NCBI GenBank assembly: GCA_002898235.1
Contig: BEIL01000001.1
Coordinates: 16,034 to 80,033 of the forward strand
Length of the DNA stretch: 64,000 bases
Reading direction: 5' to 3'
From: a bacterium HR35
GTDB lineage: Bacteria; Patescibacteriota; Minisyncoccia; UBA6257; HR35
Shown here: in pieces, positions 11,787-29,182 of the stretch
Numbering within the stretch: the stretch's first letter is position 1
How the letters are laid out: every line of letters starts with the position of its first letter
The notes under the pieces: model-generated
Told to the model about the DNA's origin: nothing
Seen by the model: the letters and a program-made list of their open reading frames with translations, nothing else
Databases searched by the model: none
Program-made: the position numbers and the translations under genes

Positions 11787-14700
11787 ATGAAAAGAAAATA
11801 CTTTGGATTAACATTTTTGGTCTTAATTCCTTTGTTTTTTTCCATTTCTCAATCATCTCCTGTTTCTTTAATTAGTTCTTTTCCTAGTTCTGTTAGAGTT
11901 TACGAAAAATTTGAAATTAAATTTAATGTTAATACTGCAGCAGAAAATTATTTTTTTTCTTATGATGAAAATCCTCCTGCTGGAGTAAAACCTAAAATAG
12001 GTGTTAGTGTAGATGGTATTTTTTATCATGTAGAATCTGGAAAAACATATACTCAACCAGCCTTTTGGACAGTTGAAGTTATTCGAAGTGGATCGGGTAG
12101 AAATATGATTTTTGAGGAAACAAATAAATCTTATTGGGTTTTAAGATTTTCTCCACAAAAAACAGGAACTTATAAAGTGTCTATTAGAGTAAAGGATAAA
12201 AATCAAGATGTGACCACTTACATTGGTCAATTTACAGCTTTAACGCCGATTAGAAAAGGATTTATTGGTGTAAGCAAATCAGATCCAAGATACTTTGAAT
12301 TTTCTAACGGAGAATTATACTTTCCTATTGGGCCAGCTTGGTATGATAATAAATCTAGTAATCCGAATGCAAGTTTTGGTTATTCCCAATACATTGGAAC
12401 AGGATTGAATTATGAAAGAATATGGTTAGCTGGCATTGGAGCTTACTCTACTAATTTTGCTCGTTGGATAAGTTCAGCTGAAAGAATGGGTAATGAAGGT
12501 TATATGACTTTATTTGCTTATGATAATGGAACTGGAGAAAAAGTCCCCACCTATGGAGAGCTTTCTTATCCTCTTTTTTATCCAGATGGTTTTAGGTTTT
12601 GGCTAACAACTTGGGGCAATGAAATGTTAGGACCAAGATTGAAAGCTGGTCAAAAATATCGAGTAGAAATTGTTTATAAAACTTCTAATATTTCTGGTCC
12701 AAGAGTTTCTGGTTATCCTTATGGTTTTGTTGTAAAAGCAGGAACTCCTGATATTATGTGGCGCCAACACACGATTAGTGAATTTGAATCTTTTATGAGA
12801 AATTCTCCTAATCAAATTCTCTTTCCTTACGATAATCAAAATCATACTTGGCGAACTGCTACCTATGAATTTACGGCTACTCAAGGCTGGCAAAATATTT
12901 ATCTTTATTTAGATAATGTTTCGAATGGTCAAGTCTATATTTATAAATTTTCAATTAAACCAGTTTTGAGCGATGGTAGTTTAGGCGGTGAAGTTATTAG
13001 AAATCCAATAGCCGACCAACATACTTATGTTGATCCTCGGGGAGCAGCTTTTATTGATTGGTTAGTAGAAGAAGCAGAAAAGGCAGGAGTCTATCTTCAA
13101 TTAGTTGTTCATGATAAAAATGATGCTATTCAAAATAGACTCAAGATGGATGGCACTTGGACAGATATTTTTAAAGGAGATGGATATTACCAACCTGAAA
13201 ATACTAAAGCTAGGTGGCTCTTAAGACAATGGTATAGATATTTAGCAGCTAGGTGGGGATATTCACCAAATATTTTTGCTTGGGAATTAAACAACGAAGG
13301 ACCACCCGATGAAGATCCGCCAGGAAGCGGAACATCCCCTCACTGGAGAACAGCTCAAGCTTTTGCTCAGTTTATGCATACTGTTGATTCTCACCCTCAT
13401 TTAGCTTCTACTTCATTCTGGTGTTGTTGGCGACCTCAATTTTGGGGTAATAATACTTATTTCCCAGATATTAATTATGCCGATGTTCATGAATATACTA
13501 ACAATCCTCAAGTAGCTCCTCAAAATTATACTTATGATGAAGTTTCCTTTATTTACTCTTTAGGAGTTAATACTGCTAAAGATAATGTTGGCAAGCCAGT
13601 TCTTATAGGGGAGCATGGAATTAGTGGAAGCAATTGGATGCCTGTTTCTGAACTTCAACAACCTAATTCTGGTGTTTATTATCACAATATGCTTTGGGCT
13701 CAACTTAATTCTGCTCAAATTTTTGCTCCGGATTATTGGTATTCTGACCATTTGAGATATATTAATCGAGAAGAAATAAGTAAACCATTTGCTAAATTCG
13801 TAAGTAACCTTGATGTAAATAAAGGAGGTTATGTTAATTTGCAAGCCTCTGTTTCTAATTCTAAACTTAGAGTTTTAGGGCAAAAAAATCTTTACCTTAA
13901 TAAAGCTTATGGTTGGATTCAAAATACTGATTATACCTGGTACAACGCTTATCGAAATTACTATACTTATCAATCAGGTCAAGTTAGGATTAAATTAAAT
14001 CCAAATTATGATTATCTAATTGAATGGTGGGATACTTACACTGGAGTTACTTCGACTCAAACTCAAAGAAGCGATTACCAAGGATATGTCACTTTAAATA
14101 TTAATAATCTTAAAACCGATGTTGCTTTCAAAATTTATCCTCTTTCAGGTTCTACTCCTTCTTATCCTCCACTTTCTGTTTCTTGTTCAGCTTCTCCTAA
14201 TCCAGCTAATATCAATCAAACAGTAACCTTTACTGCTTCAGTTTCTGGAGGTACAGGTTCTTATACTTATTCTTGGTCAGGAGCTTGTTCTGGTTCTTCT
14301 TCAACTTGTTCAACTTCCTTCTCTTCAGCTGGAACTTATACTGCTAACTTAACTGTTACTTCAGGTTCAGAAACAAAATCAACTTCTTGTTCAGTAAATG
14401 TTCAAGTTCCTCAACCAGCACCTCTACCAACTGTTGATCTTAAAGTCAATAACTCTGATGGTCCAATTTCGATTACAGTTCCAACTTCAATTACTCTTAG
14501 CTGGACTTCTCAAAATGCTTCCTCTTGTACTGCTTCAGGTTCTTGGTCTGGTTCAAAATCAACTTCAGGTTCTCAATCAATCTCTCTTTCTTCAGCTGGA
14601 ACTTACAATTATACTTTAACTTGCACTAATTCTTCTGGTTCTGCTTCTGATTCAGTAACCGTTAATGCTCAATCAGCATCAATCATAATTAATCAAACAA

Positions 14701-17700
14701 CAACCACTGTTACTAAAGCTTATACGATTTCTAATACTAATCGAGATGCAGAATCAATTGGAACCAGAATCTATACTCTTCCTTCGTCAGCTCCTTGGGG
14801 CCAAATGTATTTAGGTTATGATAGATATACTTCCGGTAAAGTTTACGATGGCGGTTGGATTTTTGAAACTGATATACCCAAAGGAGCTAAAATTGTTTCT
14901 TCAACTTTAACTTTAACAGCTAATTCAGACAACTACGGACCAATTAAACTCACAGGTTATTGGTATGGTTATGCTACTAGTAATCCTCCTGATTTTGTTA
15001 ATGGTTATTCTGGAAAAAGAATCTCCACCATTTATCCTCGAACATCTAATTATGTTTACCAATCGTTTTATGTAGTTAGTCAAGGACAAAAAATTATCTC
15101 CTCTAATTTAGCTAAAATTGTTCAAGAAATAGTAAATAGACCAGACTTTAAGGGAAAAATAGGATTAACTTTTAGAACTACAAATTCAAGCAACGTTTGG
15201 CAATCCTGGATAGATTATTCAGATGATCCAGCAAATTCAGCTATTCTCACAGTAGTTTATGAGGTTACTTCTACTCCTTCTTATCCTCCACTTTCTGTTT
15301 CTTGTTCAGCTTCTCCTAATCCAGCTAATATCAATCAAACAGTAACCTTTACTTCTTCAGTTTCTGGAGGTACAGGTTCTTATACTTATTCTTGGTCAGG
15401 AGCTTGTTCTGGTTCTTCTTCAACTTGTTCAACTTCCTTCTCTTCAGCTGGAACTTATACTGCTAACTTAACTGTTACTTCAGGTTCAGAAACAAAATCA
15501 ACTTCTTGTTCAGTAAATGTTCAAGTTCCTCAACCAGCACCTCTACCAACTGTTGATCTTAAAGTCAATAACTCTGATGGTCCAATTTCGATTACAGTTC
15601 CAACTTCAATTACTCTTAGCTGGACTTCTCAAAATGCTTCCTCTTGTACTGCTTCAGGTTCTTGGTCTGGTTCAAAATCAACTTCAGGTTCTCAATCAAT
15701 CTCTCTTTCTTCAGCTGGAACTTACACCTATACTTTAACTTGCACTAATTCTTCTGGTTCTGCTTCTGATTCAGTGACTGTTAATGCTCAATCAGCACCT
15801 ACACCAACAACGACAACTTTTGAGGAATGGACTCAATTTGCTCATGATCCTATGAGAACCTCCTATACTCCTCAGTTTGTCTCACCTCCTTGGAAATGGA
15901 AATGGAGTTGGAATGGTCCAGATGCTAATGGTAATCCTGTACCAGGTAAATTTAGATTGCCAAGAAACTCTCAACCAATTACTGGAGGGGGAAGAGTTTA
16001 TATAGCTGCTGGTTCAAGAGGAGTTTATGCTCTTAATAATTCAAATGGTTCTGTTATTTGGAATGTAAATCCAGGTGGAGCTCGAATTGATTCAACTCCA
16101 GCTTATGACCCTCAAACAGATGCTCTTTTTGTTCTTTCTTCTAATGGAACACTTTATAAACTTAATGCTAGTAATGGCTCTATTTTAGCTTCTTATTCTT
16201 CAGGACAAACAATTCCTAAAGGAGAAACAAATTTTCAAGACCCTAATCAAACCCTTCCTTTGCCTCCTCTTCTTTACGGAAATAGAGTTTACTTTGTAGC
16301 TGGTACTAAAATGTTTGCTCTTGATAAAAATAATCTTTCGGTTGTTTGGTCCTATGATTCCGGTGGTTCTCCATTTGTTACTCCAGTTGCCTATTCTCCT
16401 TCCTATAATAGATTAGTAGCTGTTACTCGAGATTTATATGTCAATGCTGTTGATGCTAATAGTGGTTCGCTTGTTTGGAGAACTAAACCGACAATAAGAA
16501 ATTATGGTGATCCAGGAGAGAATAATCAAACTTTAGCTCAAGCTGAATATGGCTGGCCTGTTATTGCTGAAAGAACCGGTTTAGTACTAATCAAATATAG
16601 ATTAGATTGGAATGCTCTTTTTAATCCTTTTAGTCCCTGGCCAACTGATAATGCTACCATAAGAGCTGGTTTAGAACAAAATCCTCAATATCAAGCTTTG
16701 TTTGCTTTAAGACTTTCTGATGGTTCAAAAGCTTTTACTGCTAATATTGGTCACGGAGGTTGGGGAGATGGCGGTTATCTACCAATGGGAAATATTCCAG
16801 CAGTTAAAAGCTTTCCCGATGGCTCTGAAGTTGCTTATCTTGTTATCAGAGGTCATCAAGCAATGGATGGTCGTTGGGATTCACTTTACGGAGAATTAGT
16901 CTTAGACAATAGCAATTCCAACTTTCAACCAGGTTATGTTAGATGGATTCAATATGGAAATTATGGTTGGTATAATCCTCCATTAAGCAATATTATGGTA
17001 CCGCCTACTGACGAACAACCTTATGTCATTATAGCTGGTAATTATTTATTCGGAGGTCACTGGATATTAGGTCAAGCTTTAGAAATAAAAGACCGCTCTT
17101 CTAATCTTGGCACTTATACTAACCCAATTAAATCAGCACCTCTTCCACATATTGTTGAATCAACTAATTTAGTACCTTACAATAGTTCTCATTATTCAGA
17201 TAGTATGATTGCTGCTACTGCTGGAGGAACTGAGTGGCGAGCTGTTCCTTATGGTTTTTACATTTATAACGATTCAGTTGGAAAAATTTATGATCAATAT
17301 TGGTCTGGTTATGCTACTTGGATAGTTAGCAATAATACTATTTACTTTCTTTCTACTGATGGAGCTTTAGTAGCTTTGGAGCAAGGTAATCCCACCCAAT
17401 TAACCGAAACAAGAAAAATCGTAATAAACGAAAATCTAATAAAAAACATTTCTTCTCTTGCTTCCCGTTTATTAGCACAAATTTCTCCTTCTAAACCTAT
17501 AGAAATTCAACCAGAAGATATATCTAAAAATTTTACTGAACTTTTAAATAAAGAAGTACTTTTAAGAGGAAAAATAATAAAAGTGGTTGCTAACCATCAT
17601 GGAACATTTATAAAACTCCACCAAACTCCGTATTCACCAACAATAATCATCAAACCTGATGTTTATTCTGAATTTTCAAAACCACCTTTTGAAATTTTCA

Positions 17701-17798
17701 AACCAGGAATGAATATTAAAGTAAAAGGAATATTGACTTATTATCGCGGAGATCCAGCAATTTATATAACCAATCCATCTCAAATTCTTTCCGAATAA
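11787..17798 (+). CDS. giant secreted multidomain protein: N-terminal beta-sandwich, GH clan-A-like catalytic domain, two PKD/Ig-like module pairs, PQQ-like beta-propeller, C-terminal OB-like domain
   Basis: Signal peptide. Clan GH-A-like acid/base and nucleophile motifs (FAWELNNEGPP and VLIGEHG). Two copies of a PKD-like pair (SCSASPNPANINQTVTFT..GGTGSYTYSW). Repeated propeller blades (RVYIAAGSRGVYALNNSNGSVIW; NRVYFVAGTKMFALDKNNLSVVW; LYVNAVDANSGSLVW). 2003 aa. Confidence 0.6.
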   Translation: MKRKYFGLTFLVLIPLFFSISQSSPVSLISSFPSSVRVYEKFEIKFNVNTAAENYFFSYDENPPAGVKPKIGVSVDGIFYHVESGKTYTQPAFWTVEVIRSGSGRNMIFEETNKSYWVLRFSPQKTGTYKVSIRVKDKNQDVTTYIGQFTALTPIRKGFIGVSKSDPRYFEFSNGELYFPIGPAWYDNKSSNPNASFGYSQYIGTGLNYERIWLAGIGAYSTNFARWISSAERMGNEGYMTLFAYDNGTGEKVPTYGELSYPLFYPDGFRFWLTTWGNEMLGPRLKAGQKYRVEIVYKTSNISGPRVSGYPYGFVVKAGTPDIMWRQHTISEFESFMRNSPNQILFPYDNQNHTWRTATYEFTATQGWQNIYLYLDNVSNGQVYIYKFSIKPVLSDGSLGGEVIRNPIADQHTYVDPRGAAFIDWLVEEAEKAGVYLQLVVHDKNDAIQNRLKMDGTWTDIFKGDGYYQPENTKARWLLRQWYRYLAARWGYSPNIFAWELNNEGPPDEDPPGSGTSPHWRTAQAFAQFMHTVDSHPHLASTSFWCCWRPQFWGNNTYFPDINYADVHEYTNNPQVAPQNYTYDEVSFIYSLGVNTAKDNVGKPVLIGEHGISGSNWMPVSELQQPNSGVYYHNMLWAQLNSAQIFAPDYWYSDHLRYINREEISKPFAKFVSNLDVNKGGYVNLQASVSNSKLRVLGQKNLYLNKAYGWIQNTDYTWYNAYRNYYTYQSGQVRIKLNPNYDYLIEWWDTYTGVTSTQTQRSDYQGYVTLNINNLKTDVAFKIYPLSGSTPSYPPLSVSCSASPNPANINQTVTFTASVSGGTGSYTYSWSGACSGSSSTCSTSFSSAGTYTANLTVTSGSETKSTSCSVNVQVPQPAPLPTVDLKVNNSDGPISITVPTSITLSWTSQNASSCTASGSWSGSKSTSGSQSISLSSAGTYNYTLTCTNSSGSASDSVTVNAQSASIIINQTTTTVTKAYTISNTNRDAESIGTRIYTLPSSAPWGQMYLGYDRYTSGKVYDGGWIFETDIPKGAKIVSSTLTLTANSDNYGPIKLTGYWYGYATSNPPDFVNGYSGKRISTIYPRTSNYVYQSFYVVSQGQKIISSNLAKIVQEIVNRPDFKGKIGLTFRTTNSSNVWQSWIDYSDDPANSAILTVVYEVTSTPSYPPLSVSCSASPNPANINQTVTFTSSVSGGTGSYTYSWSGACSGSSSTCSTSFSSAGTYTANLTVTSGSETKSTSCSVNVQVPQPAPLPTVDLKVNNSDGPISITVPTSITLSWTSQNASSCTASGSWSGSKSTSGSQSISLSSAGTYTYTLTCTNSSGSASDSVTVNAQSAPTPTTTTFEEWTQFAHDPMRTSYTPQFVSPPWKWKWSWNGPDANGNPVPGKFRLPRNSQPITGGGRVYIAAGSRGVYALNNSNGSVIWNVNPGGARIDSTPAYDPQTDALFVLSSNGTLYKLNASNGSILASYSSGQTIPKGETNFQDPNQTLPLPPLLYGNRVYFVAGTKMFALDKNNLSVVWSYDSGGSPFVTPVAYSPSYNRLVAVTRDLYVNAVDANSGSLVWRTKPTIRNYGDPGENNQTLAQAEYGWPVIAERTGLVLIKYRLDWNALFNPFSPWPTDNATIRAGLEQNPQYQALFALRLSDGSKAFTANIGHGGWGDGGYLPMGNIPAVKSFPDGSEVAYLVIRGHQAMDGRWDSLYGELVLDNSNSNFQPGYVRWIQYGNYGWYNPPLSNIMVPPTDEQPYVIIAGNYLFGGHWILGQALEIKDRSSNLGTYTNPIKSAPLPHIVESTNLVPYNSSHYSDSMIAATAGGTEWRAVPYGFYIYNDSVGKIYDQYWSGYATWIVSNNTIYFLSTDGALVALEQGNPTQLTETRKIVINENLIKNISSLASRLLAQISPSKPIEIQPEDISKNFTELLNKEVLLRGKIIKVVANHHGTFIKLHQTPYSPTIIIKPDVYSEFSKPPFEIFKPGMNIKVKGILTYYRGDPAIYITNPSQILSE
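14155..14676 (+). repeat. copy 1 of a roughly 520 bp direct repeat (PKD/Ig module pair) inside the 2003 aa gene
   Basis: Near-identical to 15272-15793, with only about 5 substitutions. The copies are 1117 nt apart. The six-frame track shows the same minor ORF twice (14398-14619 and 15517-15738), differing by 1 aa. Confidence 0.85.
15272..15793 (+). repeat. copy 2 of the roughly 520 bp direct repeat
   Basis: See copy 1. Confidence 0.85.
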
Positions 17799-17880: not shown

Positions 17881-20322
17881 ATGCCTCAAAATTATAAGGA
17901 AAAATTTTATGGGATATTAGAGGATATGTTTGTGGGAGATGCTGAGATAGAAGGTGGCGGAGGTTTTATTAATCTTTTAAAAATTAAGAAAAATTACTAT
18001 CAAAAAGCTTTTAAACCAAAACTTGAAGAAAAAGTAAATGAGGTTTTAAACAAATATCCAAATTTTGAAACAGAGCTTTTCGAAAAATTTTATACTTTCT
18101 TCTCTCGTTATTTTTCAGAATCAGGCTCAATTTATTTTGTTAATACTCCAGTATATCATCAAATTTATGAAAAAATTTACACCGACAAAGAAGATGTTAT
18201 TTTGTTCTGGAAGACAAGAGATCTTTATTACATTAAAACAGATAGAATCTTCAAAACTTTAGAAATTGAAATAGATAATTATAAATTTTATTTTGATGTC
18301 TCTAAACTTGAATACAAAAAAGCAAACGAAAAAAGAGAAGTAATTTATAAACTTGATGAAGAAAAAACAACAAAGGATAAAATTTATTTTTATGTTTATT
18401 ATTCAGAAAAAGGAAAAACAACAAAAATTGATGAGATATTAAAAGCACTCAAAAAGAAAAACATAAAAATTAATGAAGATATTTTAGAAAAAGCATTTAG
18501 AAGATTTGAACAACAATCAGAAGTAGATTATTTTATTCATAAAAACGCAAAAACCTTCTTAACAGAACAATTAAAACTTTACATTTATAACTATCTCTTT
18601 AAAGAAACTCAAGAATGGACAAGTGAAAGAATTGACCAAATAAATAAATTCAAAGAAACCGCTGAACTTATAATTGACTTTGTTTCAAAATTTGAAGATG
18701 AATTAGTTAAAATCTGGAATAAACCGAGATTTGTTTTAAATTCAAATTATGTAATAACTCTTGATAGAATAGTTAAACAAAATAAACAAAAAGGAATTGA
18801 AATTATAGAAAAAATAATTAATCATAAAAACTTTAATGAACAAGTGAAAGAATGGAAAGAACTTGGAATTATTGATGAAAATTTTAATAAAAATGAAATT
18901 ATTAAAAATGACTTAACAGGAGAAAATTTAAATCCAAAATATCAATTCTTACCAATTGATACAAAATACTTTAAAGATTTAGAAATTGAAATTTTAGAAC
19001 TTTTTGATGATTTAGATAATTCTCTTGATGGCTGGTTAATAAAAAGTGAAAATTATCAAGCATTAAATACAATCCTTCCAAAATTTAAAGAAAAAGTCCA
19101 AACAATTTATATCGATCCACCATTTAACAAAGAGCAAGATGCTGATTATCTATATAATGTCAAATACAAAGATTCTACCTGGATAACATTACTTGAAAAC
19201 AGATTAACATTAGCAAAAGATATATTAAAAGATACAGGAAGCATTTTTGTAAGATGTGATTATAACGGCAATATGTATGTAAGATTGTTGATGAATGAAA
19301 TTTTTGGAGAAGAGAATTTTAGAAATGAGATAGTGATAGCAAAAACTAAAGAGTTTTTTAAAACTATGACGCATATAAACAAGTTTTCTGAAGAATCTGA
19401 AAGCCTATTTTTCTTTTCAAAAACTTCTAATTTGCTATTTAATCTTGTTTACAGACAAAAAGAAGTACCTTCTAAATATGAACCTTTTCTGCCTGTAGGA
19501 GATAAAACATATCAAGATTCTAGAATTATTGATGGAAAAGAATATTATTCTCCTAAAGGAAGAAAATGGGGAGTGAAACAGGAAGATATTGATGAGTTAG
19601 TTAAAAGTGGGAGATTAATTTTTGAAAATGGTAAATGGTATTTAATTACATATGAAGAACCTCTAAAAAATGTTTGGACTGACAAACAAGGATATTCAAG
19701 ATATTGGAAATTTCCTACCGAAAACTCCGAAATCCTCCTCAAGCGTGTAATTGAATCCACTTCTAACGAAGGCGATTTAGTTATGGATTTCTTTTTAGGA
19801 AGTGGTACAACAACAGCAGTAGCACATAAACTTAAAAGAAAATGGATTGGTGTTGAGATGGGAGAGCATTTTTATAGTGTAGCTTTGCCAAGAATGAAAA
19901 AAGTTTTGGCTTATGATAAATCAGGAATTTCAAAAGAAAAAGATGTTAAAGAAAAATACAATGAAAATAATGCTGGAGGATTTTTCAAGTATTATGAACT
20001 TGAACAATATGAAGAAATTTTAAGAAAAGCAAAATATCAAGATATAAATGAGCCTAAAACATTATTTGATAAAGATTTTAATTACATTTTTATGCCTGAT
20101 GAAAAAATGTTATCAGCATTAGAAATTGATTACCAGAATAATAAAGTAAAAATTGATTTAAATAAAATTTATCCAAACATTGACATTGCTGAAACATTAT
20201 CAAACTTAAAAGGGAAATGGATAAAGAAAATTGCGAAAGATTATGTTGAATTTGAAGATGGAGAGAAGATAGATTTAAATAATTTAGATTTAAGGTCAAT
20301 TAAAAAATTAATATGGTGGTGA
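17881..20322 (+). CDS. mod: Type III restriction-modification methyltransferase (Mod), beta-class amino-methyltransferase with a roughly 400 aa N-terminal extension
   Basis: Motif IV IYIDPPFN precedes motif I FFLGSGTTTAVAHKL, the beta-class order. A DEAH-helicase Res gene lies downstream. Confidence 0.7.
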   Translation: MPQNYKEKFYGILEDMFVGDAEIEGGGGFINLLKIKKNYYQKAFKPKLEEKVNEVLNKYPNFETELFEKFYTFFSRYFSESGSIYFVNTPVYHQIYEKIYTDKEDVILFWKTRDLYYIKTDRIFKTLEIEIDNYKFYFDVSKLEYKKANEKREVIYKLDEEKTTKDKIYFYVYYSEKGKTTKIDEILKALKKKNIKINEDILEKAFRRFEQQSEVDYFIHKNAKTFLTEQLKLYIYNYLFKETQEWTSERIDQINKFKETAELIIDFVSKFEDELVKIWNKPRFVLNSNYVITLDRIVKQNKQKGIEIIEKIINHKNFNEQVKEWKELGIIDENFNKNEIIKNDLTGENLNPKYQFLPIDTKYFKDLEIEILELFDDLDNSLDGWLIKSENYQALNTILPKFKEKVQTIYIDPPFNKEQDADYLYNVKYKDSTWITLLENRLTLAKDILKDTGSIFVRCDYNGNMYVRLLMNEIFGEENFRNEIVIAKTKEFFKTMTHINKFSEESESLFFFSKTSNLLFNLVYRQKEVPSKYEPFLPVGDKTYQDSRIIDGKEYYSPKGRKWGVKQEDIDELVKSGRLIFENGKWYLITYEEPLKNVWTDKQGYSRYWKFPTENSEILLKRVIESTSNEGDLVMDFFLGSGTTTAVAHKLKRKWIGVEMGEHFYSVALPRMKKVLAYDKSGISKEKDVKEKYNENNAGGFFKYYELEQYEEILRKAKYQDINEPKTLFDKDFNYIFMPDEKMLSALEIDYQNNKVKIDLNKIYPNIDIAETLSNLKGKWIKKIAKDYVEFEDGEKIDLNNLDLRSIKKLIWW

Positions 20323-20326
20323 GAGG

Positions 20327-20791
20327 ATGAGCGAGGTTTTAAAAATAATTTTAAATAGTATCTTGCCATCTGTTTTGCTTTTTATATTATATAAATTTTT
20401 TGAAGAATTTATTTTAAAACCGTATCTAGAATATAAAAAAATACTAGCTAAAGTTGATCATTATTTAAAGTTTTATAATAATATAATTTTTAATATTAAT
20501 CCTCCTAACAGAATTAAAGCATATGAACCATTGCCTGAAGATTGGATAAAAGCAAAAGAAACATTTAGAAATTTATCGTGTGAGTTAGAATCTCATTATA
20601 AATCTATGATATGTAAATTATTTTTACCTAAAAAGGAGAATATATATACTTCAATAAAAGACTTGATGATATTATCAAATATAATCGGCATAGCCAATGA
20701 TTACAAAGGAAATTACCAAGAAAAAGCAATTCGATTAGAAGAGGAAATTAGGCGTTGTTTAAAAATACCTCAAATAAATAATGAAAAATAA
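20327..20791 (+). CDS. hypothetical small membrane-anchored protein within the R-M locus
   Basis: 154 aa with an N-terminal TM helix and no recognisable motifs. Confidence 0.25.
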   Translation: MSEVLKIILNSILPSVLLFILYKFFEEFILKPYLEYKKILAKVDHYLKFYNNIIFNINPPNRIKAYEPLPEDWIKAKETFRNLSCELESHYKSMICKLFLPKKENIYTSIKDLMILSNIIGIANDYKGNYQEKAIRLEEEIRRCLKIPQINNEK

Positions 20792-21554
20792 AAATTTATC
20801 ACATAGACAAAAACAAGAATTGATAAGAAAGAAAGCCTTGGAAATATTAGAAGAGCATAAAGAAGGAATAAAATATATGGATTTGGTTAGAAAAGTTAAG
20901 GAAAAATGTCCAGAAGTTAATCTAAATATAGTTAGATGGGAAGTATGGTATTTACCGAGAATATTCGAAGATGTAATAAAACCCGAAAGAGGACTTTTTA
21001 TTTTAAAAAAATATTATAAAGAAATTTCAAAAGGAGAAATAGATTTAAAAGAAAGGAGGATTTATAAAATAGATGAATCTGTTTTTTATCAATATTTTGC
21101 TGATTATTTAATGAATGAATTAGAAGAATGTACAAAAGCTATACCATTGGGAGGAAGTAGATTTCAAGATAAATGGGGAACACCAGATGTATTAGGAATA
21201 TATAAAATTTCTGAAACTGAGCCAATAAGACCTTTACCAGAAATAATAAGTGCCGAGATAAAAATTGATACTAATCAATTAATAACAGCTTTTGGCCAAG
21301 CTTGTGCTTATAAATTATTTAGCCATAAAGTTTATTTAGTTATACCTAAAAATGCTTCACCATTGGATTTGGGGAGATTAGAATCTTTATGTTTAAGATT
21401 TGGCATCGGTTTAATTACTTTTGATAGAAATAATTCTGAAAATCCAGATTTTAGAATAATAACAAGAGCAGTTAAAAGTGAACCAGATTATTTTTATGTT
21501 AATGAATATTTAAAAAGATTAGATAAAAAAGATTTAAAAGAGTTATTTGGATGA
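20781..21554 (+). CDS. putative winged-helix plus PD-(D/E)xK nuclease-like protein
   Basis: N-terminal wH-like region. The C-terminal region has a GTPDVLG....SAEIK arrangement compatible with a PD-(D/E)xK catalytic motif. Confidence 0.3.
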   Translation: MKNKNLSHRQKQELIRKKALEILEEHKEGIKYMDLVRKVKEKCPEVNLNIVRWEVWYLPRIFEDVIKPERGLFILKKYYKEISKGEIDLKERRIYKIDESVFYQYFADYLMNELEECTKAIPLGGSRFQDKWGTPDVLGIYKISETEPIRPLPEIISAEIKIDTNQLITAFGQACAYKLFSHKVYLVIPKNASPLDLGRLESLCLRFGIGLITFDRNNSENPDFRIITRAVKSEPDYFYVNEYLKRLDKKDLKELFG

Positions 21555-21558
21555 AATT

Positions 21559-21662
21559 ATGAATATAAAACTTATTTTAAAAAACATAGCAGAAAATATT
21601 GATTTTAATAATCTTCCATCTAATTGGCAGGGTTTTGATTTTGAGAGATTTTCTAATAATTA
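21559..21662 (+). pseudogene. duplicated 5' fragment of the res gene (34-codon relic ORF)
   Basis: Encodes MNIKLILKNIAENIDFNNLPSNWQGFDFERF, versus the Res N-terminus MNLRLILKNIAENIDFNNLPSNWQSFDFEGF. About 58 consecutive identical nt and 90 nt of overall similarity to 23177-23266. Confidence 0.7.
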
Positions 21663-21702
21663 AAAAATAAAAAGATTCAAGCCCTTGTGTTAAAATTAAA
21701 AT

Positions 21703-22695
21703 ATGATTAAGAATTTAAAGATTGAAAATTTTAAATCTATAAAAAGTGTTGAAATTGATTGTAAAAAAATTAATGTTTTTATAGGAGAACCTAATACTGG
21801 TAAGTCAAATATTTTAGAAGCTTTGGGGTTGATTTCTTTTGTACAATATTTTGGTAAATATATTGGGGGCAATAGTTCTGATGTGTTGAAAAAATTTGTA
21901 AGGTTTAAGTATATACAGGATTTATTTTTTAATAAAGATGTTTCGAAGGAAGTTATAGTTTCATTTCCGGAAGAAGTTTTTAAAATTAATCAAGTTTCAA
22001 TTTCATCTTTTGCTTTAACATTTAATAATCAAAATTTAGTTAGCTTTGATAATGTTGGAAACTTAAACTCACCTTTTCAACAATTTCAATCTAAATATGA
22101 TATTAAATTCTTCAGATATTTTTATAGAATAAATTTTCCTTCAAAGCTTTCAGGCGGACTTTTACCTCCGGATGGAGAAAATTTAGTTGAAGCTATTAGA
22201 ACAAATCCGGAACTTATGGATCTTATAGGGGAACTGTTAAGAGATTTTGGATATGAACTTTTATTAAGAGAGACAGAAGGAGAAATTGAAATAGTAAGAA
22301 AATTTAGAGCAACTTTATTAAGTTATCCATATAATTCAATTTCTGATACACTCCAAAGATTAATTTTTTATTTAACTGCTATAAAAACTAATAAAAATTC
22401 TGTTTTAGTTTTTGAAGAACCAGAAGCACATTCTTTTCCTTATTATGTAAGTAGTCTTTCAGAAATAATAGCCAACGACACAAATAACAATCAATATTTT
22501 ATTAGCACCCATAATCCATATTTTTTGATTTCTTTATTAGAAAAAACAGCTTATGAGGATATAAATGTATTTATCACAAAATTAGAGGAATATGAAACTA
22601 AATTGTTTAAAGTATCTGAAAAGGGTATAAAAGAAATGTTATCATTAGACAAAGATTTATTTTTAAATTTAGATGAATTTATAAATAAAAAATGA
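21703..22695 (+). CDS. AbiLi/RloA-like P-loop ATPase (AAA_21/OLD-family ABC-type ATPase)
   Basis: Walker A IGEPNTGKSN, Walker B/D-loop VLVFEEPEAHSFP, and H-loop ISTHNPYF. Confidence 0.6.
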   Translation: MIKNLKIENFKSIKSVEIDCKKINVFIGEPNTGKSNILEALGLISFVQYFGKYIGGNSSDVLKKFVRFKYIQDLFFNKDVSKEVIVSFPEEVFKINQVSISSFALTFNNQNLVSFDNVGNLNSPFQQFQSKYDIKFFRYFYRINFPSKLSGGLLPPDGENLVEAIRTNPELMDLIGELLRDFGYELLLRETEGEIEIVRKFRATLLSYPYNSISDTLQRLIFYLTAIKTNKNSVLVFEEPEAHSFPYYVSSLSEIIANDTNNNQYFISTHNPYFLISLLEKTAYEDINVFITKLEEYETKLFKVSEKGIKEMLSLDKDLFLNLDEFINKK

Positions 22696-23162
22696 TAACC
22701 TACGGCGAATGTAATACTGAATGTTTATTTTCTAAAGTTATTTTGGGACAAAAAGCAAAACATTTACAAGGTAAAGATAGAGTTGTTAAAAGGATAATGG
22801 ATGAGAATGGTGTATTGGGGATAATTGATTTAGATCCATCTAAACCTACAGGAAAATACTTAGAACAAATAAAGCGAATAGAACCTGTGTTTAATGAGAT
22901 TGATATAATTTTAAGAAAATTTAAATCTTCTTATTTGATTGAAATTTCTCCTTATTTTGAAGAATGGCTTGTAAATTTGTCAAGGAAAAGTAATGTGAGT
23001 CCAAAAGATTTTAATTTACCCGAAAATCCTAAAAAACTACACGAATTAATAAGCATTAAAGGAAGATTTGATAAATTAGAAGAAAGAATAGGAGGTCTTT
23101 TGGAAGCTATAATAAGCAAAAATAAAGAACACTTTAATAAATTAAAAAATAATATTAAATAA
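22692..23162 (+). CDS. AbiLii/RloB-like small protein (Toprim-like)
   Basis: N-terminus YGECNTECLF resembles the RloB cEGekTEpnYF motif, and GIIDLDP supplies a DxD. Translationally coupled to the ATPase (ATGA overlap). Confidence 0.4.
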   Translation: MITYGECNTECLFSKVILGQKAKHLQGKDRVVKRIMDENGVLGIIDLDPSKPTGKYLEQIKRIEPVFNEIDIILRKFKSSYLIEISPYFEEWLVNLSRKSNVSPKDFNLPENPKKLHELISIKGRFDKLEERIGGLLEAIISKNKEHFNKLKNNIK

Positions 23163-23176
23163 ATAAAATTTAATAA

Positions 23177-26044
23177 ATGAATTTAAGATTAATTTTAAAA
23201 AACATAGCAGAAAATATTGATTTTAATAATCTTCCATCTAATTGGCAGAGTTTTGATTTTGAAGGTTTTTCAAGGAGCAAAAAACTTTATGATTTTCAAA
23301 TTGAGGCTTTAGAAAACTTTTTAAAAGTTTTGTGGTTTTATTATGAGAAAGATTTTGATTATAGAGAAGGAGAAGGTTTAAATATTAATGACAAAAGGAA
23401 AGAAAAGTTATTTAAAGAATATTTAGATTATGATTTAAATCCAGAAGAGGTTTCTCTTAAATACAAAAAAGAAAAGAAAAATAAATTTATTTTTGAGTAT
23501 TATTTTTTAGAAAATGAAGAGATAAGTTTTAAACATTTTGTAAATAGAGCTGGATTTTGGATGGCAACAGGAAGCGGAAAAACATTAGTGATTATTAAAA
23601 TAATTGAATTTTTGAAAGAATTAATGAAGAGAAAGGAAATTCCTAATTTTGATATTTTATTTTTAACTCATAGAGAGGATTTAATAACACAATTTAAAAA
23701 ACATTTAGAGGAATTTAATGAGGGAAGGGAAAATAAAATTCAAGTTTATGATTTAAAAGATTATGAAAAACAAAAGCGGGGATTACTGAATGAAAATTTT
23801 ATTTTTTATTACCGAGCAGATTTATTTTCAGATGAAGAAAAAGAAAAAATTGTAGATTTTAAAAATTATTTTAATGATGGAAAGTGGTTTGTTATTTTAG
23901 ATGAAGCTCATAAAGGAGATACTGAAGAATCTGAAAGGCAACATATATTTTCTATTCTTTCGAAAAATGGATTTCTTTTTAATTTTTCAGCAACTTTTAG
24001 CGATGCTATTGATTTAATTACAACTTGCTTTGAATATAACCTATCAACATTTATTGAAAATGGTTATGGAAAGAAAATTTATATTTCTGATTATGAAGCA
24101 AAAGCTTTTAAAGAAGAATTTAAGCAAAAAGACAAACAAAAAATTATTTTAAAAGGGTTAATTCTTTTAACTTATATTAAAAAGGAGTTAAATAAAGTTA
24201 GAGAAAAAATCTCGAATGCTTATCATAATCCTTTACTTCTTGTTTTAGTAAATTCAGTAAATAAAGAAGATGCTGACTTGAAATTATTTTTTGAAGAAAT
24301 CAGAAATATAGCTGAAGGGAATTTTGATAAAAGTTTAATTGAAGAAGCAAAGGAAGAAATAAAAAAAGAATTTCAAGAAAAAGAAAATTTTGATATTCCA
24401 GGAGATGATAAATTAAAAATAGATTTTAATTTAGTCTCAAAAGTAACTTATAATGATATTTTGAAAAATGTTTTTAATTCTGATAGGCCGGGAAAGATAG
24501 AAATTTCTTATAGTCCTAAAGAAAAAGGAGAAGTGGCTTTTAAATTAAAAATCTCTGATTCACATTTTGCTTTAATGAAAACAGGAGATATGCCAGGTTG
24601 GCTTAAAGATTCTTTAAGTCAGTTTGAGGTTAATCATCTTTATGAAAATGAAAAATTTTTTGAAGAAATAAATAGTGATAGTTCTAAAATAAATATTTTA
24701 TTGGGATCAAGAGTTTTTTATGAAGGATGGGATTCAAATAGGCCAAATATTATTATGTTTATAAATATTGGAACACAAAAGGAAGCTAAAAAATTTGTTT
24801 TACAATCTGTAGGGAGAGGGATAAGAATTGAACCAATAAAAAATGAAAGAAAGAGGATTTTATATATTAAAGAAAAAATAGGAAAAGTTTTTGATGAGAT
24901 TAAAGATTATGTTTCTTCAATAGAAAGCTTGTTTATCTTTGGAACTAATAAAAGTGCCATTGAGACTATAATTACCGAAGTTAATGCAATTAAAGAAAAA
25001 ACATTTAAGGGTACAAAAATTTCTCTTTTCAAAAATATTGAAGCAATTAAAGAAAATGTCTTGTTAGTACCAAAATATAAAGAAGGAGAAAAAAGGATTT
25101 TTGAAGAAGAAGTTAGATATGGAATTTCTGAAGACGATTTTAAAAAGTTAAAGGAATTTAATGAATTTGTTAAAGATGATAGGGTTTTACTAGTAAATCT
25201 TGATACTGAACCTAAATTAGTTAAATATTTTAGAGAATCTTTACTTTATCAAAAACAATTAGTTAGTGGAAACTATTATAAAAAATCTGATTCAGAGAGA
25301 AACAATGTCGAGGTGATTTTAAGCGACCTTTTTAAGTTTTGGGGAACTAAGTTTCAAGATTTTGAAAAATTTAAGGAATTAGAGGATGAAATAAAGCATT
25401 TCGAAAATATTGTTATTGAAGAAGCTAAATTTAATGATTTTGAATCAATAAAAGAAGCAGTTATGGGTACAAAAAGGAGTTTGCCTTTTGAAAATTTGAA
25501 ATTAGAATATATAACTAATCATTATTATTTACCTCTTATTTTAAGTAAAGATGAAAAAATTGACTATATTAAGCACATAATTAAGACTAAAAGCGAAGTT
25601 GAATTCATAGAAAGGTTAGAAAATTATATAAATTTAAATAATAATAAATTTAAAAATTTTGATTGGTGGATGTTTAGCAAAATTGATGAAAGTTTAGATG
25701 AAGTTTATATTCCTTATTATGATGTTGAAAAAGGAGGTATAAGAGGGTTTAAACCAGATTTTATATTTTGGTTAAAGAAAGATAATAACTATTTTATTGT
25801 TTTTATTGATCCAAAATCAACAAAATTTACTGATTATGAAAATAAAATTTCTTGGTACAAAAGGTTATTTGAAGAGAATAACAAGCCGAGATTATTTAAA
25901 TATAAAAATTTAAATTGTTTTGTTTATTGCTTTTTATATACAGAAGATAAAGATAAAGTTATAAATTCTTCTTACAAAGATTACTGGTTTGAAAACATAG
26001 ATAAAGTGCTTGAAAAATTTGTCAATAAAAATAGGGGGCATTGA
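23177..26044 (+). CDS. res: Type III restriction enzyme Res subunit (SF2 DEAH helicase plus C-terminal nuclease)
   Basis: Walker A ATGSGKT, DEAH box ILDEAHKG, helicase motif VI-like QSVGRGIR, and a C-terminal PD..D/ExK-like region KPDFIFW...FIDPKS. Confidence 0.75.
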   Translation: MNLRLILKNIAENIDFNNLPSNWQSFDFEGFSRSKKLYDFQIEALENFLKVLWFYYEKDFDYREGEGLNINDKRKEKLFKEYLDYDLNPEEVSLKYKKEKKNKFIFEYYFLENEEISFKHFVNRAGFWMATGSGKTLVIIKIIEFLKELMKRKEIPNFDILFLTHREDLITQFKKHLEEFNEGRENKIQVYDLKDYEKQKRGLLNENFIFYYRADLFSDEEKEKIVDFKNYFNDGKWFVILDEAHKGDTEESERQHIFSILSKNGFLFNFSATFSDAIDLITTCFEYNLSTFIENGYGKKIYISDYEAKAFKEEFKQKDKQKIILKGLILLTYIKKELNKVREKISNAYHNPLLLVLVNSVNKEDADLKLFFEEIRNIAEGNFDKSLIEEAKEEIKKEFQEKENFDIPGDDKLKIDFNLVSKVTYNDILKNVFNSDRPGKIEISYSPKEKGEVAFKLKISDSHFALMKTGDMPGWLKDSLSQFEVNHLYENEKFFEEINSDSSKINILLGSRVFYEGWDSNRPNIIMFINIGTQKEAKKFVLQSVGRGIRIEPIKNERKRILYIKEKIGKVFDEIKDYVSSIESLFIFGTNKSAIETIITEVNAIKEKTFKGTKISLFKNIEAIKENVLLVPKYKEGEKRIFEEEVRYGISEDDFKKLKEFNEFVKDDRVLLVNLDTEPKLVKYFRESLLYQKQLVSGNYYKKSDSERNNVEVILSDLFKFWGTKFQDFEKFKELEDEIKHFENIVIEEAKFNDFESIKEAVMGTKRSLPFENLKLEYITNHYYLPLILSKDEKIDYIKHIIKTKSEVEFIERLENYINLNNNKFKNFDWWMFSKIDESLDEVYIPYYDVEKGGIRGFKPDFIFWLKKDNNYFIVFIDPKSTKFTDYENKISWYKRLFEENNKPRLFKYKNLNCFVYCFLYTEDKDKVINSSYKDYWFENIDKVLEKFVNKNRGH

Positions 26045-26108: not shown

Positions 26109-26633
26109 ATGAAAATTTATTTTGTTACACATTCGACAACGGTTGATAATGAGAAAAATATTGTTTCTGGATGGAATGATGTTGAGTTATCTGAAACTGG
26201 TAAAAAACAAGCAAAAGAAATTGCGAAAAGATTTGAAAATTTTAATTTGGATTTGATTTGCTGTTCTGATTTAAAAAGAGCAGTGGAGACAGTGAAAATT
26301 GCTTTCAATGATAAATACCCTGTTATTATTGATAAAAGATTAAGAGAAATAAATTATGGTGATTTTAGTGGTAAAGAAAAAACTTTCATTGATTCGATAA
26401 AACTCAATTATATAGAAAAACCATTTCCTAATGGAGAAAGTTTTAAAGACGCAATTGAAAGGGTGATTAATTTTTATAAAGAATTAAAAGAGAAATATAA
26501 TGATAAAGTTATTTTGATTGTTGGTCATCGAGCAACTCATTATGCTTTTGAAGTATTAATAAACAAGAAATTAATTGAAGAATGTTTAAAAATACCGTTT
26601 CAATGGCAGCCCTATTGGGACTATGAATTTTAA
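26109..26633 (+). CDS. histidine phosphatase (phosphoglycerate mutase-like) family protein
   Basis: N-terminus IYFVTHSTT...GW.D..LSETGKKQA and a later LIVGHRATH. The canonical Arg of RHG is replaced by Thr. Confidence 0.55.
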   Translation: MKIYFVTHSTTVDNEKNIVSGWNDVELSETGKKQAKEIAKRFENFNLDLICCSDLKRAVETVKIAFNDKYPVIIDKRLREINYGDFSGKEKTFIDSIKLNYIEKPFPNGESFKDAIERVINFYKELKEKYNDKVILIVGHRATHYAFEVLINKKLIEECLKIPFQWQPYWDYEF

Positions 26634-26641
26634 TAAAAGTT

Positions 26642-27178
26642 ATGTTAGATAAGTTTAAAGTGATTAAACGAAAAGTAAAGTATATTCGATTGGAAATTAA
26701 AGATTTTGGGGTGAGGGTGGTTGTGCCGGAGGGTTTTAATGGAGATGTTGAGAAAGTTATTGAGAGGCATAGAAGATGGTTGGAGAAAAAGCTTGCTTTG
26801 TTGAATGAGATAAAAAGCTTGAGTGAGAGATTGGAAATTTATAATCATAAAAATTTAGAAGAAATTGTTAGTGAATATATAAATGAAATTAGTCAGATTT
26901 TGAAGGTAAAACCAAAAGGAATTTATTTTAGGAATATGAAGGTAAGATGGGGAAGTTGTACTTTTGATGGAAGGTTGATTTTTAATAAAAAGTTAAAGTT
27001 TTTGCCAAAAGAATTAATAAGATATGTTGCTGTTCATGAAATGTGTCATTTGTTAATTAAAAATCATCGAAAAGAATTTTGGTTATTAGTTAAAAAATTA
27101 TGTCCAGAGTTTAAAAATTATCAAAAATTGTTGGCTTCCTATAGAATTAAAATATATAGCGATTATTCACTTAACTGA
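26642..27178 (+). CDS. YgjP-like metal-dependent hydrolase (DUF45/M48-like)
   Basis: RWGSCT motif and HEMCHLLIKNHRKEFW (HExxH...NH..FW). Confidence 0.65.
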   Translation: MLDKFKVIKRKVKYIRLEIKDFGVRVVVPEGFNGDVEKVIERHRRWLEKKLALLNEIKSLSERLEIYNHKNLEEIVSEYINEISQILKVKPKGIYFRNMKVRWGSCTFDGRLIFNKKLKFLPKELIRYVAVHEMCHLLIKNHRKEFWLLVKKLCPEFKNYQKLLASYRIKIYSDYSLN

Positions 27179-27187
27179 TAAGATGTA

Positions 27188-29182
27188 ATGAAAAAGAAAG
27201 TGTTTTTGCCTTTAATAATTTTATTAGGAATATTTGTTTTATTAATATTACAGAATTATGAAAATTTAAGTATCAAAGAAAAGTTGAATATTAAATTAAA
27301 AACAAGAGAAGCTCTTAAGATTTGCGATAATCTTTCAGAAGAACAAAAAGAAAGCTGTTATTGGAATCTTGCTAAATCTAAACAAAATTTATCGATTTGT
27401 GACAAGATTCAAAGAGAATGGATAAAAAATATCTGTTATTTGGATGTTGCTGAAGAAAAACAAGATTTATCTATTTGCGATAGAATACAGGATAAGACTA
27501 AAAAGGACTATTGTTATTTAAAAATTGCTGAGATGAAAAGGGACCCATCTATCTGTAACAAAATTCAAAATGAGGAAGAGGAAAGCTATGACGGAGATAA
27601 TAAGTATTTTAAAGATAATTGTTATTTAAAAATTGCACAAGCTAAACAAGATTTATCCATTTGTGATAGAATAAAGAATTCTTCCGTAAAAGATGATTGT
27701 TATAAATTACTTGCTATAATTAAACAAGATTTATCCATTTGTGATAAGTTATATTATTCAAATGAAAAAGACTATTGTTATTCAAGAGTTGCGCAAGTTA
27801 AACAAGATCCATCTATTTGCAATAAGATTGTTTGTAGTGAAATAAGTTCGTGGGATTGGTGTTTTAAAGATTTTTGTTATCAAAATATTGCTCAAACTAA
27901 AAAAGATGTATCTTTTTGTGAAAATATTAGAAATTTTTTATATGGAAAAAGTTTTTGCTATCAGGTAATAGGCGAAATTACTCAGAATTTATCTATTTGT
28001 GACAAAATTAGGGATGAAGAAAGAAGAGGATGGTGTTATCGATCAATTGCTGTTCTTCAACAAAATGCCTCTCTTTGCGAAAAGATAAACAATGAATACA
28101 TAAGAGATTATTGTTATTGGGACATTGCTTTAAATAATCAGAATCCACTTTTTTGTGAAAAATTGCACAATGAGAAAAATAAAAATCTTTGTTATTTAAA
28201 TGTTACCGAAGCTAAAAAAGAGACAAATTTATCAGAATATTCTAAGATAATTCAAAATTCGTTAGCAGATCAATTTATTGAAATAAGATTGGAAGATTTA
28301 AAAGAAGGGAAAAATAAGATAGGAGGTTTAACGATTGAACGAAAATTTATAACTACTTTAAGAGATGGATATAAGTTTATTATAAATAATTTAAAATATA
28401 TTATTAATTCAACAGGTTTAAACTGCGGTGCCTATCAATGTGGTGAAAGTTTTGAATTAAATATAGTAAAAAATGAAAACGATGATCAATCTCGAGTATT
28501 AAATTTCTGGATATCTGATTATGGAGGAGAAGTTTATTTTTTTAAATATCTAGATTTTATATATTTTATTGGAAGCACCATTGCAAAACCGAGAGGGCTT
28601 TGTTATCCTATTGAAGAGTCTATAATTTATTCAGCTTACAAAGATATGGTCGAAGATGAACAAGGTTTAAGACATACCCCATTATTAATAAAAAAGAATG
28701 GTAAGTTGTATCTTAAAGCAGAGAAAAATTTTTGTTATGAAGATTTTTGCGATTCAGTTTTAGAAAATATTGAGTCTTTAAAAAAAGAAGAGGATTTCTA
28801 TACACCTAAAAATCAGCGTTTTAGATGTTTTTGTTATGATTTTGACGAAACAGCACCCTGTGTTGATGAATATTATTTAATAGACAATGGCAAATTTATA
28901 GAAAGAAATCAAGATTTTAAATCAGAATATCTTGAAAAAGCAGAAAAATTTAAAAAAGAACTTCAGGAAAAACATTGGCAAAATGGTGATTGGATTTTGA
29001 CATTATTAAATAAAACACTAAACTTAATCTTTGCTGGTGAAGAAGAAAAGGCCTGGAGAGAATTTTTTGAAGATTTCCAGAGTCTTTCTCAAGCCTATCC
29101 TTTTGAAGGTATTGAAAAAATAAATCCTGATAAAATAAAAGAAGAAATTCAAAAAAATATAGCTAGAGAAAGTGGGTTTTGA
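27188..29182 (+). CDS. secreted protein with about 11 tandem roughly 30 aa Cys-containing repeats (LSICDKI...DYCY...A..KQD) plus a Cys-rich C-terminal domain
   Basis: Signal peptide. Repeats of the pattern KQ(D/N)LSICD(K/R)I(x7-9)(D/N)xCYxx(I/V)Axx between aa 40 and 330. Confidence 0.5.
   Translation: MKKKVFLPLIILLGIFVLLILQNYENLSIKEKLNIKLKTREALKICDNLSEEQKESCYWNLAKSKQNLSICDKIQREWIKNICYLDVAEEKQDLSICDRIQDKTKKDYCYLKIAEMKRDPSICNKIQNEEEESYDGDNKYFKDNCYLKIAQAKQDLSICDRIKNSSVKDDCYKLLAIIKQDLSICDKLYYSNEKDYCYSRVAQVKQDPSICNKIVCSEISSWDWCFKDFCYQNIAQTKKDVSFCENIRNFLYGKSFCYQVIGEITQNLSICDKIRDEERRGWCYRSIAVLQQNASLCEKINNEYIRDYCYWDIALNNQNPLFCEKLHNEKNKNLCYLNVTEAKKETNLSEYSKIIQNSLADQFIEIRLEDLKEGKNKIGGLTIERKFITTLRDGYKFIINNLKYIINSTGLNCGAYQCGESFELNIVKNENDDQSRVLNFWISDYGGEVYFFKYLDFIYFIGSTIAKPRGLCYPIEESIIYSAYKDMVEDEQGLRHTPLLIKKNGKLYLKAEKNFCYEDFCDSVLENIESLKKEEDFYTPKNQRFRCFCYDFDETAPCVDEYYLIDNGKFIERNQDFKSEYLEKAEKFKKELQEKHWQNGDWILTLLNKTLNLIFAGEEEKAWREFFEDFQSLSQAYPFEGIEKINPDKIKEEIQKNIARESGF

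Follow-up and report, generated by a model that had tools for sequence, protein, structure and literature searches.

The stretch of DNA analysed here (hereafter the window) comprises 64,000 nucleotides (nt) of contig BEIL01000001.1 (positions 16,034 to 80,033 of the forward strand) from the Patescibacteriota bacterium HR35, and our analysis concerns two of its genes, which we call X154 and Y257, that lie in a restriction-modification (R-M) operon between the methyltransferase gene mod and the restriction subunit gene res. Judged by sequence the operon is a Type III R-M system, with a beta-class Mod and a Res that combines a superfamily 2 (SF2) ATPase with a C-terminal PD-(D/E)xK nuclease. Mod gives a full-length match to the PADLOC model MTase_III PDLC03638 (E 0), while Res matches ResIII (E 7e-19) and carries the C-terminal motif P860-D861 ... 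D878-P-K880, which is kept in nine homologs. The initial annotation of this region had placed open reading frames of 154 and 257 amino acids (aa) directly after mod, which we confirm, and had taken them to be the only genes between mod and res, which is not the case, as four genes in three modules and a remnant of res occupy the interval. The features are as follows:

17881-20322, + strand: mod, Type III beta-class DNA methyltransferase, 813 aa (DPPF ... FLGSG; PF01555, E 1.2e-41)
20327-20791, + strand: X154, an orphan protein of 154 aa in a variable cargo position next to mod
20781-21554, + strand: Y257, 257 aa, member of a large family without a name, endonuclease-like, with winged-helix and PD-(D/E)xK modules
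21555-21702, + strand: gap of 148 nt holding the res remnant
21559-21663, + strand: remnant of the res 5' end, 34 codons then TAA, encoding MNIKLILKNIAENIDFNNLPSNWQGFDFERFSNN and a stop, part of a 108-nt direct repeat
21703-22695, + strand: AAA330, ABC/OLD-type ATPase without a nuclease domain, 330 aa (AAA_15, E 4e-18; AAA_21, E 7e-12)
22692-23162, + strand: 156-aa open reading frame, overlapping the ATPase gene by 4 nt
23177-26044, + strand: res, Type III restriction subunit, 955 aa, with an SF2 helicase-like ATPase and a C-terminal PD...DxK nuclease

The two core genes of the operon are therefore not adjacent, being separated by 2,854 nt that hold the four genes and the res remnant. Translational coupling of the two genes to each other and to mod had been proposed and is borne out by the layout, as the ATG of X154 lies 4 nt after the TGA of mod with a GAGG in the spacer, and the reading frames of X154 and Y257 overlap by 11 nt. 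A 500-bp profile of guanine-plus-cytosine (GC) content is unbroken across the operon, and a promoter and terminator scan of this 25% GC DNA was uninformative, returning 75 promoter-like sites where 61 were expected.

An AlphaFold2 model of Y257 built from 56 homologs reached a mean predicted local distance difference test (pLDDT) score of 85.8 and divides the protein into two folded modules joined by a linker:

Residues 8-75 (20802-21005, + strand): winged helix of the Rok / HARE-HTH (helix-turn-helix) kind
Residues 86-95 (from the AlphaFold2 model): disordered linker
Residues 99-257 (21075-21551, + strand): alpha/beta nuclease domain

In the model the core of the nuclease domain follows the order alpha-beta-beta-beta-alpha-beta, with an aspartate at the start of strand 2 and the ExK in strand 3, and on this predicted structure Y257 is a member of the PD-(D/E)xK superfamily, since it has both the core fold and the catalytic D ... 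(D/E)xK. The GTPDVLG...SAEIK motif reported earlier is correctly placed, at residues 133-139 (21177-21197) and 157-161 (21249-21263) respectively, and the restriction-endonuclease-like fold with an N-terminal winged helix that had been suspected agrees with the predicted structure. The key residues are E99, E116, G133-T-P-D136, S157-A-E159-I-K161 and Q173-xxx-Y177, and in a set of 151 sequences (the query and 150 proteins, each representing a cluster at 50% identity) the D...ExK residues, whose conservation had been named as the check on the nuclease assignment, prove essentially invariant: P135 is conserved in 151/151, D136 in 150/151, and E159 and K161 each in 149/151. Q173 (150/151) and Y177 (149/151) are equally well kept, E99 is found in 145/148 and an acidic residue (E or D) stands at position 116 in 135/151. 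Conservation is stronger in the nuclease domain than in the winged helix (mean frequency of the top residue 0.59 versus 0.37), and the recognition helix of the latter is without the hypervariability expected of a specificity-matched subunit.

Structural matches to the Y257 model, each with its figure, were PaqCI (11.3), SPO1766 (11.0; PDB 3dnx, which we take to belong to the MmcB-like family), NucS (9.5), AF1548 (9.2), NgoMIV (8.6), N.BspD6I (8.2), HindIII (7.9), FokI (7.3) and the BspD6I small subunit (7.3), with MspJI and AspBHI likewise among them, and the N-terminal domain resembles cullin WHB, RPA32 and other winged helices. Foldseek gave AF2093 as the top match to the model (E 5e-4), a protein for which a literature search gave nothing relevant, and also matched the Rok DNA-binding domain, with the winged helix matching 5zuz at probability 1.00. 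In the viral library BFVD the matches were phage proteins annotated 'MmcB-like DNA repair protein' (E 1e-7 to 1e-4).

The Y257 family is large, with 3,359 clusters at E <= 1e-3 in a 90% collection and 737 representatives at 50%, which supports Y257 as a genuine gene, and every source name is 'hypothetical protein'. Its members come from Patescibacteria, DPANN, archaea of the anaerobic methanotrophic (ANME)/Methanosarcinales group, Aquificota, Planctomycetota, Bacteroidota and Proteobacteria, typically at 50-65% identity to the query, in a patchy distribution across bacteria and archaea that resembles horizontal gene transfer (HGT). Phage collections gave no Y257 match, and plasmid collections a single one, 35% identical, on an unannotated Novosphingobium megaplasmid. 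Searches of Pfam, NCBIfam, PHROG and PADLOC found no model that covers the nuclease domain, and the few weak matches obtained, PDB included, are to winged helices, among them the Rok DNA-binding domain matched by the family profile at E 1e-3. At E <= 0.1 no Type IV model (Mrr_N, Mrr_cat or others) was matched in Pfam, NCBIfam or PADLOC, nor were MmcB-like PF06319 or any repair-family profile, the similarity to MmcB-like proteins lying at the level of fold; Shedu models (SduA, DUF4263) were not matched either. A paralogous origin of the Y257 nuclease from that of Res was considered and rejected, as profile-profile comparison gave no signal.

The N-terminal part of the family varies. P0205 exceeds the Pfam cut-off for WH_Rok and carries up to four winged-helix copies, P0165 has an extra HARE-HTH (E 1.5e-19) before the same nuclease core, and P0126 and P0131 add XRE HTHs before a Y257-type core. 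One family representative of 344 aa, P0167, has an N-terminal region of about 190 residues, preceding the Y257-type nuclease, that by eye resembles a PUA/EVE-type reader of modified bases and gives no Pfam hit; such a reader, if confirmed, would favour a Type IV role.

We looked up the pre-annotated neighbours of thirteen close homologs (>= 55% identity) and found all 13 in R-M operons. Ten have the order Mod-X-Y257-(optional cargo)-Res of the window's own Type III family, and in the remaining three Y257 follows two Dam-class methylases and an AlwI-family enzyme (L004), follows an N6_Mtase/Type_ISP_C enzyme, or stands at the end of an HTH-methylase-419 aa-60 aa cluster. A genome scan added other Type III contexts, namely Mod(TypeIII_RM_meth)-Y257-Res in L020, Mod-268 aa-Y257-Res in L026 and, in the reverse gene order, Res(ResIII+RE_endonuc)-Y257-Mod in L036. 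The partners of Y257 accordingly span three Type III families, an AlwI type IIS enzyme, a methylase/Type_ISP_C enzyme and a C-M-R type II system. Y257 may also lie downstream of res (L111, L112, L122) or occur without any X gene (L021, L022, L163, L020). Distant members (~50% identity) are often solitary, beside purL, carB, tsaD or SMC genes, and a scan of their adjacent genes showed no methyltransferase; others adjoin an MmeI-like enzyme or a TraI relaxase, and synteny is conserved in Aquificaceae and in Methanosarcinales/ANME archaea.

A Res-anchored search returned 80 metagenomic loci, 68 of them with Mod and Res on the same contig. The earlier view that mod is normally followed directly by res holds for the 36/68 in which the two genes abut, and fails for the other 32/68 of this family, which carry one to three co-directional genes (0.4-3.9 kb) between them. 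The cargo includes RhuM and Fic (6 members each), HATPase_c_4 / Schlafen-AlbA_2 and AAA_21 / AAA_15 (4 each), DUF6119 (3), NTP_transf_2 with HEPN (MNT-HEPN; 3 and 2) and, as single cases, DUF4411, GmrSD, AAA_13, HepT, NYN, Bro-N and Peptidase_M78, while the PADLOC candidates PDC-S05 and PDC-S23 were matched by six members each. Y257 lies in or adjoins the operon at 8/80 loci, and we reject the idea that it is an obligate part of this Type III family on that count. Toxins of this set have already been reported inside R-M operons (PMC3710099), and the cargo is consistent with the 'guardian' concept of PrrC and PARIS (PMC12707154).

The junction also bears the marks of recombination. A direct repeat of 108 nt (87% identity) links 21559-21666 with the res 5' end at 23177-23284, and the remnant ATG at 21559 stands five bases past the Y257 stop. 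In the closest relative, the Parcubacteria metagenome-assembled genome locus L012, whose Y257 is 86% identical to that of the window, the operon reads Mod-X154-Y257-Res-YgjP without the ATPase pair, and its true res start aligns with the remnant; because the L012 res starts at the remnant position, the cassette of ATPase and 156-aa protein appears to have come later and to have brought a new res 5' end with it. In PADLOC, AAA330 matches AriA (3e-17), AbiLi (8e-17, full length) and GajA (2e-16). The 156-aa protein has no family match in Pfam, NCBIfam, PHROG or PADLOC, and its E6, D46-x-D48 and E90-x-W92 are invariant among three homologs. The pair may be a split OLD/PARIS-like ATPase with a mini-Toprim module, a Toprim identity that we infer for the small partner, and it recurs in two other loci, in L113 again between mod and res and in L096 downstream of res. 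Scars are found elsewhere too. In L135 (8185-8350) a 27-codon res 5' remnant directly follows a full Y257 and is itself followed by a second remnant, of the Y257 3' end (...AVKSEPDYFYVNRYLRTLEAEARELF and a stop), a junction duplication which points to cargo exchange via recombination at the Y257/res boundary, and in L144-L146 (~7973-7996) the first cargo gene is followed by 24 nt that duplicate the mod 3' end, a similar scar at the mod edge of the slot. In this Type III family the junction of mod and res acts as a slot for cargo and bears recombination scars, in keeping with the earlier suggestion of genes riding the R-M operon.

X154 itself has few relatives, as a search of 5.8e9 proteins returned the protein and one ortholog (L012, 75% identical). 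The ratio of nonsynonymous to synonymous substitution rates (dN/dS) between the two is 0.13, indicating purifying selection, so X154 is a real gene. Its predicted membrane anchoring is supported by an N-terminal hydrophobic helix at about residues 4-25, with a Kyte-Doolittle 19-residue mean of 2.11 at residues 4-22. An AlphaFold2 model from two sequences (pLDDT 62) is all-alpha with five helices, of low confidence and too weak for a fold search; Pfam, NCBIfam and PADLOC gave no match, PHROG gave phrog_7512 at E 1e-3 only, and a PDB sequence search gave chance-level matches only. The proteins found at the X position elsewhere are unrelated to X154 and mostly to each other, which makes X154 the occupant of a fast-turnover cargo position and not a partner of Y257. 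They include N-terminally anchored or transmembrane proteins, Rx4H HEPN-like proteins, a PD-ExK-like protein and a possible PIN. The treatment of X154 and Y257 as a pair, or as a conserved two-gene module, does not survive this comparison, with an unrelated gene at the X position in almost every operon and Y257 occurring without X as well.

The Rx4H proteins at the X position lie at 6883-7986 in L007, 5988-6878 in L173, 5030-5974 in L183 and 5331-5969 in L181, and have no Pfam match; their Rx4H motifs are typical of HEPN RNases, and the proteins could represent novel effectors of a HEPN-like kind housed in Type III operons.

The explanation that we favour, and hold with moderate confidence, is that the Type III operon slot carries autonomous second-line defence cargo and that Y257 is a predicted Type IV-like endonuclease. 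The mod-res junction would then be a slot for passenger defence genes, filled in the window by three independent modules in four genes (X154; Y257; the ATPase and its small partner), of which the ATPase cassette would have recombined in later and left the duplicated res 5' end as a scar. Y257 would be an autonomous DNA endonuclease and not a subunit of the Type III enzyme, and its co-transcription with mod and res would add a second restriction layer, the winged helix presumably reading a DNA feature absent in the host (a foreign base modification or a structure) and the nuclease cutting nearby. X154 would most likely be an unrelated membrane effector of the abortive-infection type. We regard an autonomous extra-defence endonuclease as the best explanation because Y257 joins a nuclease fold to a DNA-binding domain, recurs as an R-M passenger and also occurs alone, and its autonomy is suggested by partners that are unrelated R-M types, by the solitary distant members and by a recognition helix that is not hypervariable. 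Methylation-dependent cutting of the partner's own methyl mark is unlikely, as Y257 always lies beside active methyltransferase genes, two of them Dam-class in L004.

Several points weigh against this explanation. The occurrence of all 13 close-clade proteins in R-M operons, usually abutting or overlapping the res start, fits a physical partnership too, and the winged helix is Rok and cullin/RPA32-like, not a methyl-adenine reader of the DpnI type. Were Y257 of Type IV, it would need to leave DNA methylated by its own operon uncut. Identities of 50-65% across phyla and domains together with stable archaeal synteny (purL neighbours) could indicate a housekeeping role, and the failure to match Mrr, Shedu or PADLOC models is by itself no support for a role in defence.

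Toxins and nucleases carried in R-M operons and winged-helix-nuclease fusions are established, and the fold of Y257 is a familiar one. GmrSD is an established Type IV family and occupies the same slot at another locus. Y257 shares the two-module design of winged helix, here a putative reader, and nuclease with the Type IV enzymes that are fused to a winged helix (DpnI-like PD-(D/E)xK-wH, wH-HNH and wH-GIY-YIG, where wH is winged helix) and with Mrr (Mrr_N plus Mrr_cat), as well as being a small single chain found in defence neighbourhoods and perhaps able to stand without a cognate methyltransferase. It differs in its order, winged helix then nuclease where DpnI has nuclease then winged helix, in a winged helix that is Rok/HARE-like and not DpnI-like, in its lack of a Pfam Mrr_N or Mrr_cat match and in a close clade that is always beside active methyltransferases. 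Fusions of winged helix and nuclease have been shown experimentally to be Type IV enzymes (PMC11037411). As with the toxins embedded in R-M operons (PrrC in EcoprrI, RhuM, Fic/DOC, HEPN and PARIS-type ATPases), for which the logic of a 'second line of defence' has been set out (PMC3710099, PMC12707154), the genes described here are co-directional passengers; the embedded toxins of those two studies are mostly in Type I systems, whereas here the host is Type III and the slot is the mod-res junction, and Y257 is not among the families that they describe. In the literature and libraries searched we found no description of the Y257 family, of its systematic embedding in several Type III families or of a mod-res junction that takes up cargo and carries scars.

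The main rival reading, which we consider unlikely, has Y257 bound to the neighbouring restriction enzyme as an accessory subunit, a separate cleavage domain that Res, or an AlwI-type or IIG enzyme, would recruit to cut the second strand or enlarge the break. R.BspD6I, a heterodimeric type IIS enzyme, offers a precedent in its small subunit, from which Y257 differs in having its own DNA-binding domain, in its association with many R-M types and in its solitary occurrence. A subunit would account for the position of the 13 close homologs, mostly immediately 5' of res with stop and start overlapping or near-abutting, for the placement between mod and res in three Type III families and both gene orders and for that directly after the AlwI-family gene in L004; the scars moreover show the Y257-res junction to be the ancestral arrangement, and the cleavage fold is type IIS-like. 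It accords poorly with the intact PD...DxK motif that Res has of its own and to which Y257 shows no profile similarity, with the presence of Y257 in only about 8 of the 80 Res-anchored loci and the empty junction in 36 of 68, with partners too diverse for a single interface, with the many solitary family members and with the cases in which Y257 follows res (L111, L112, L122). The three-gene Type III systems, in which an extra SF2 helicase-like ATPase lacking a nuclease motif is encoded 5' of mod (PMC8259958), set a precedent for a conserved third gene; Y257 is instead of nuclease type and lies between mod and res. We think it similarly doubtful that Y257 is a widespread and hitherto unrecognised accessory nuclease working with ATP-dependent or asymmetric-site restriction enzymes, for which it could serve as a recruited second cleavage module or a break-processing partner.

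Less probable still is that Y257 is a housekeeping nuclease, MmcB-like and active in DNA repair or structure-specific, which has hitch-hiked into the R-M operons of some lineages. Distant members beside purL, carB, tsaD and SMC, with synteny in Aquificaceae and Methanosarcinales/ANME, and a sequence conservation unusually high for a defence gene would suit such a role, and they have to be set against the patchy, HGT-like spread across bacteria and archaea, the systematic R-M embedding of the window protein's clade, the absence of a sequence match to PF06319 or any repair family and the variable N-terminal fusions to DNA readers, which are typical of conflict systems. Neither MmcB-like domains nor type IIS cleavage domains of the PaqCI/FokI type give a detectable sequence-profile match to Y257, which has in addition to them an N-terminal winged helix, a conserved QxxxY motif and a long, conserved C-terminal extension (180-257).

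A selfish, free-standing homing-type endonuclease gene inserting between conserved genes is very improbable: the patchy distribution, the solitary intergenic positions, the union of DNA-binding module and nuclease and the scars at Y257/res junctions are what such an element might leave, but the genes are tightly packed (spacers of 2-11 nt or overlaps) with no composition break in the GC profile, the scars flank other cargo and not Y257, Y257 falls outside the known homing endonuclease families and its association is repeatedly with R-M genes specifically. That Y257 is a C-protein-like controller timing res expression by its winged helix, with a nuclease-like domain serving only for dimerisation, we find hardly credible, for despite the Rok repressor-type winged helix, the position just upstream of res and the extra XRE HTH of some relatives, the catalytic residues are invariant in 150 divergent homologs, which is unexpected if the domain has only a structural role, an HTH_3 controller is already encoded separately in L178 and the solitary members have no obvious target to control.

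Downstream of res lie two further genes:

26109-26633: histidine phosphatase gene (PF00300), between res and the YgjP-like gene
26642-27178, + strand: YgjP-like metallopeptidase (PF01863, E 1e-38)

A YgjP-like gene directly follows res in L012 and L011, with one small gene intervening in L182, which suggests that the peptidase regularly accompanies this Type III family and that the phosphatase is a further insertion. On the other side of the operon, 11787-17798 encodes a secreted-type protein of 2,003 aa with an internal repeat of ~1.1 kb, the copies of which begin near 14.4 kb and 15.5 kb and include near-identical PKD-like segments; its gene is richer in GC (0.32-0.40) than the R-M operon (0.21-0.31). 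A 664-aa protein encoded at 27188-29182 consists of many Cys-containing repeats of ~26 residues (LSICDKI...CY), and Tandem Repeats Finder reports an array of 78-nt period at 27611-27828 within its gene.

Were Y257 an accessory nuclease after all, 'Mod-Y257-Res' would be a genuine three-component variant of Type III restriction. We presume that the reduced-genome bacteria of the candidate phyla radiation (CPR) and the DPANN archaea lack RecBCD-type enzymes that degrade cut DNA, and if that is so a three-component system might be especially useful there. On the reading that we prefer, of autonomous defence cargo, as on the accessory one, an unnamed family with a predicted intact nuclease site makes Y257 a candidate new enzyme of the Type IV-like kind or else a candidate accessory component, likewise new, of Type III restriction, and the slot itself provides a simple way to mine defence effectors, by examining anything that lies between this mod and this res.

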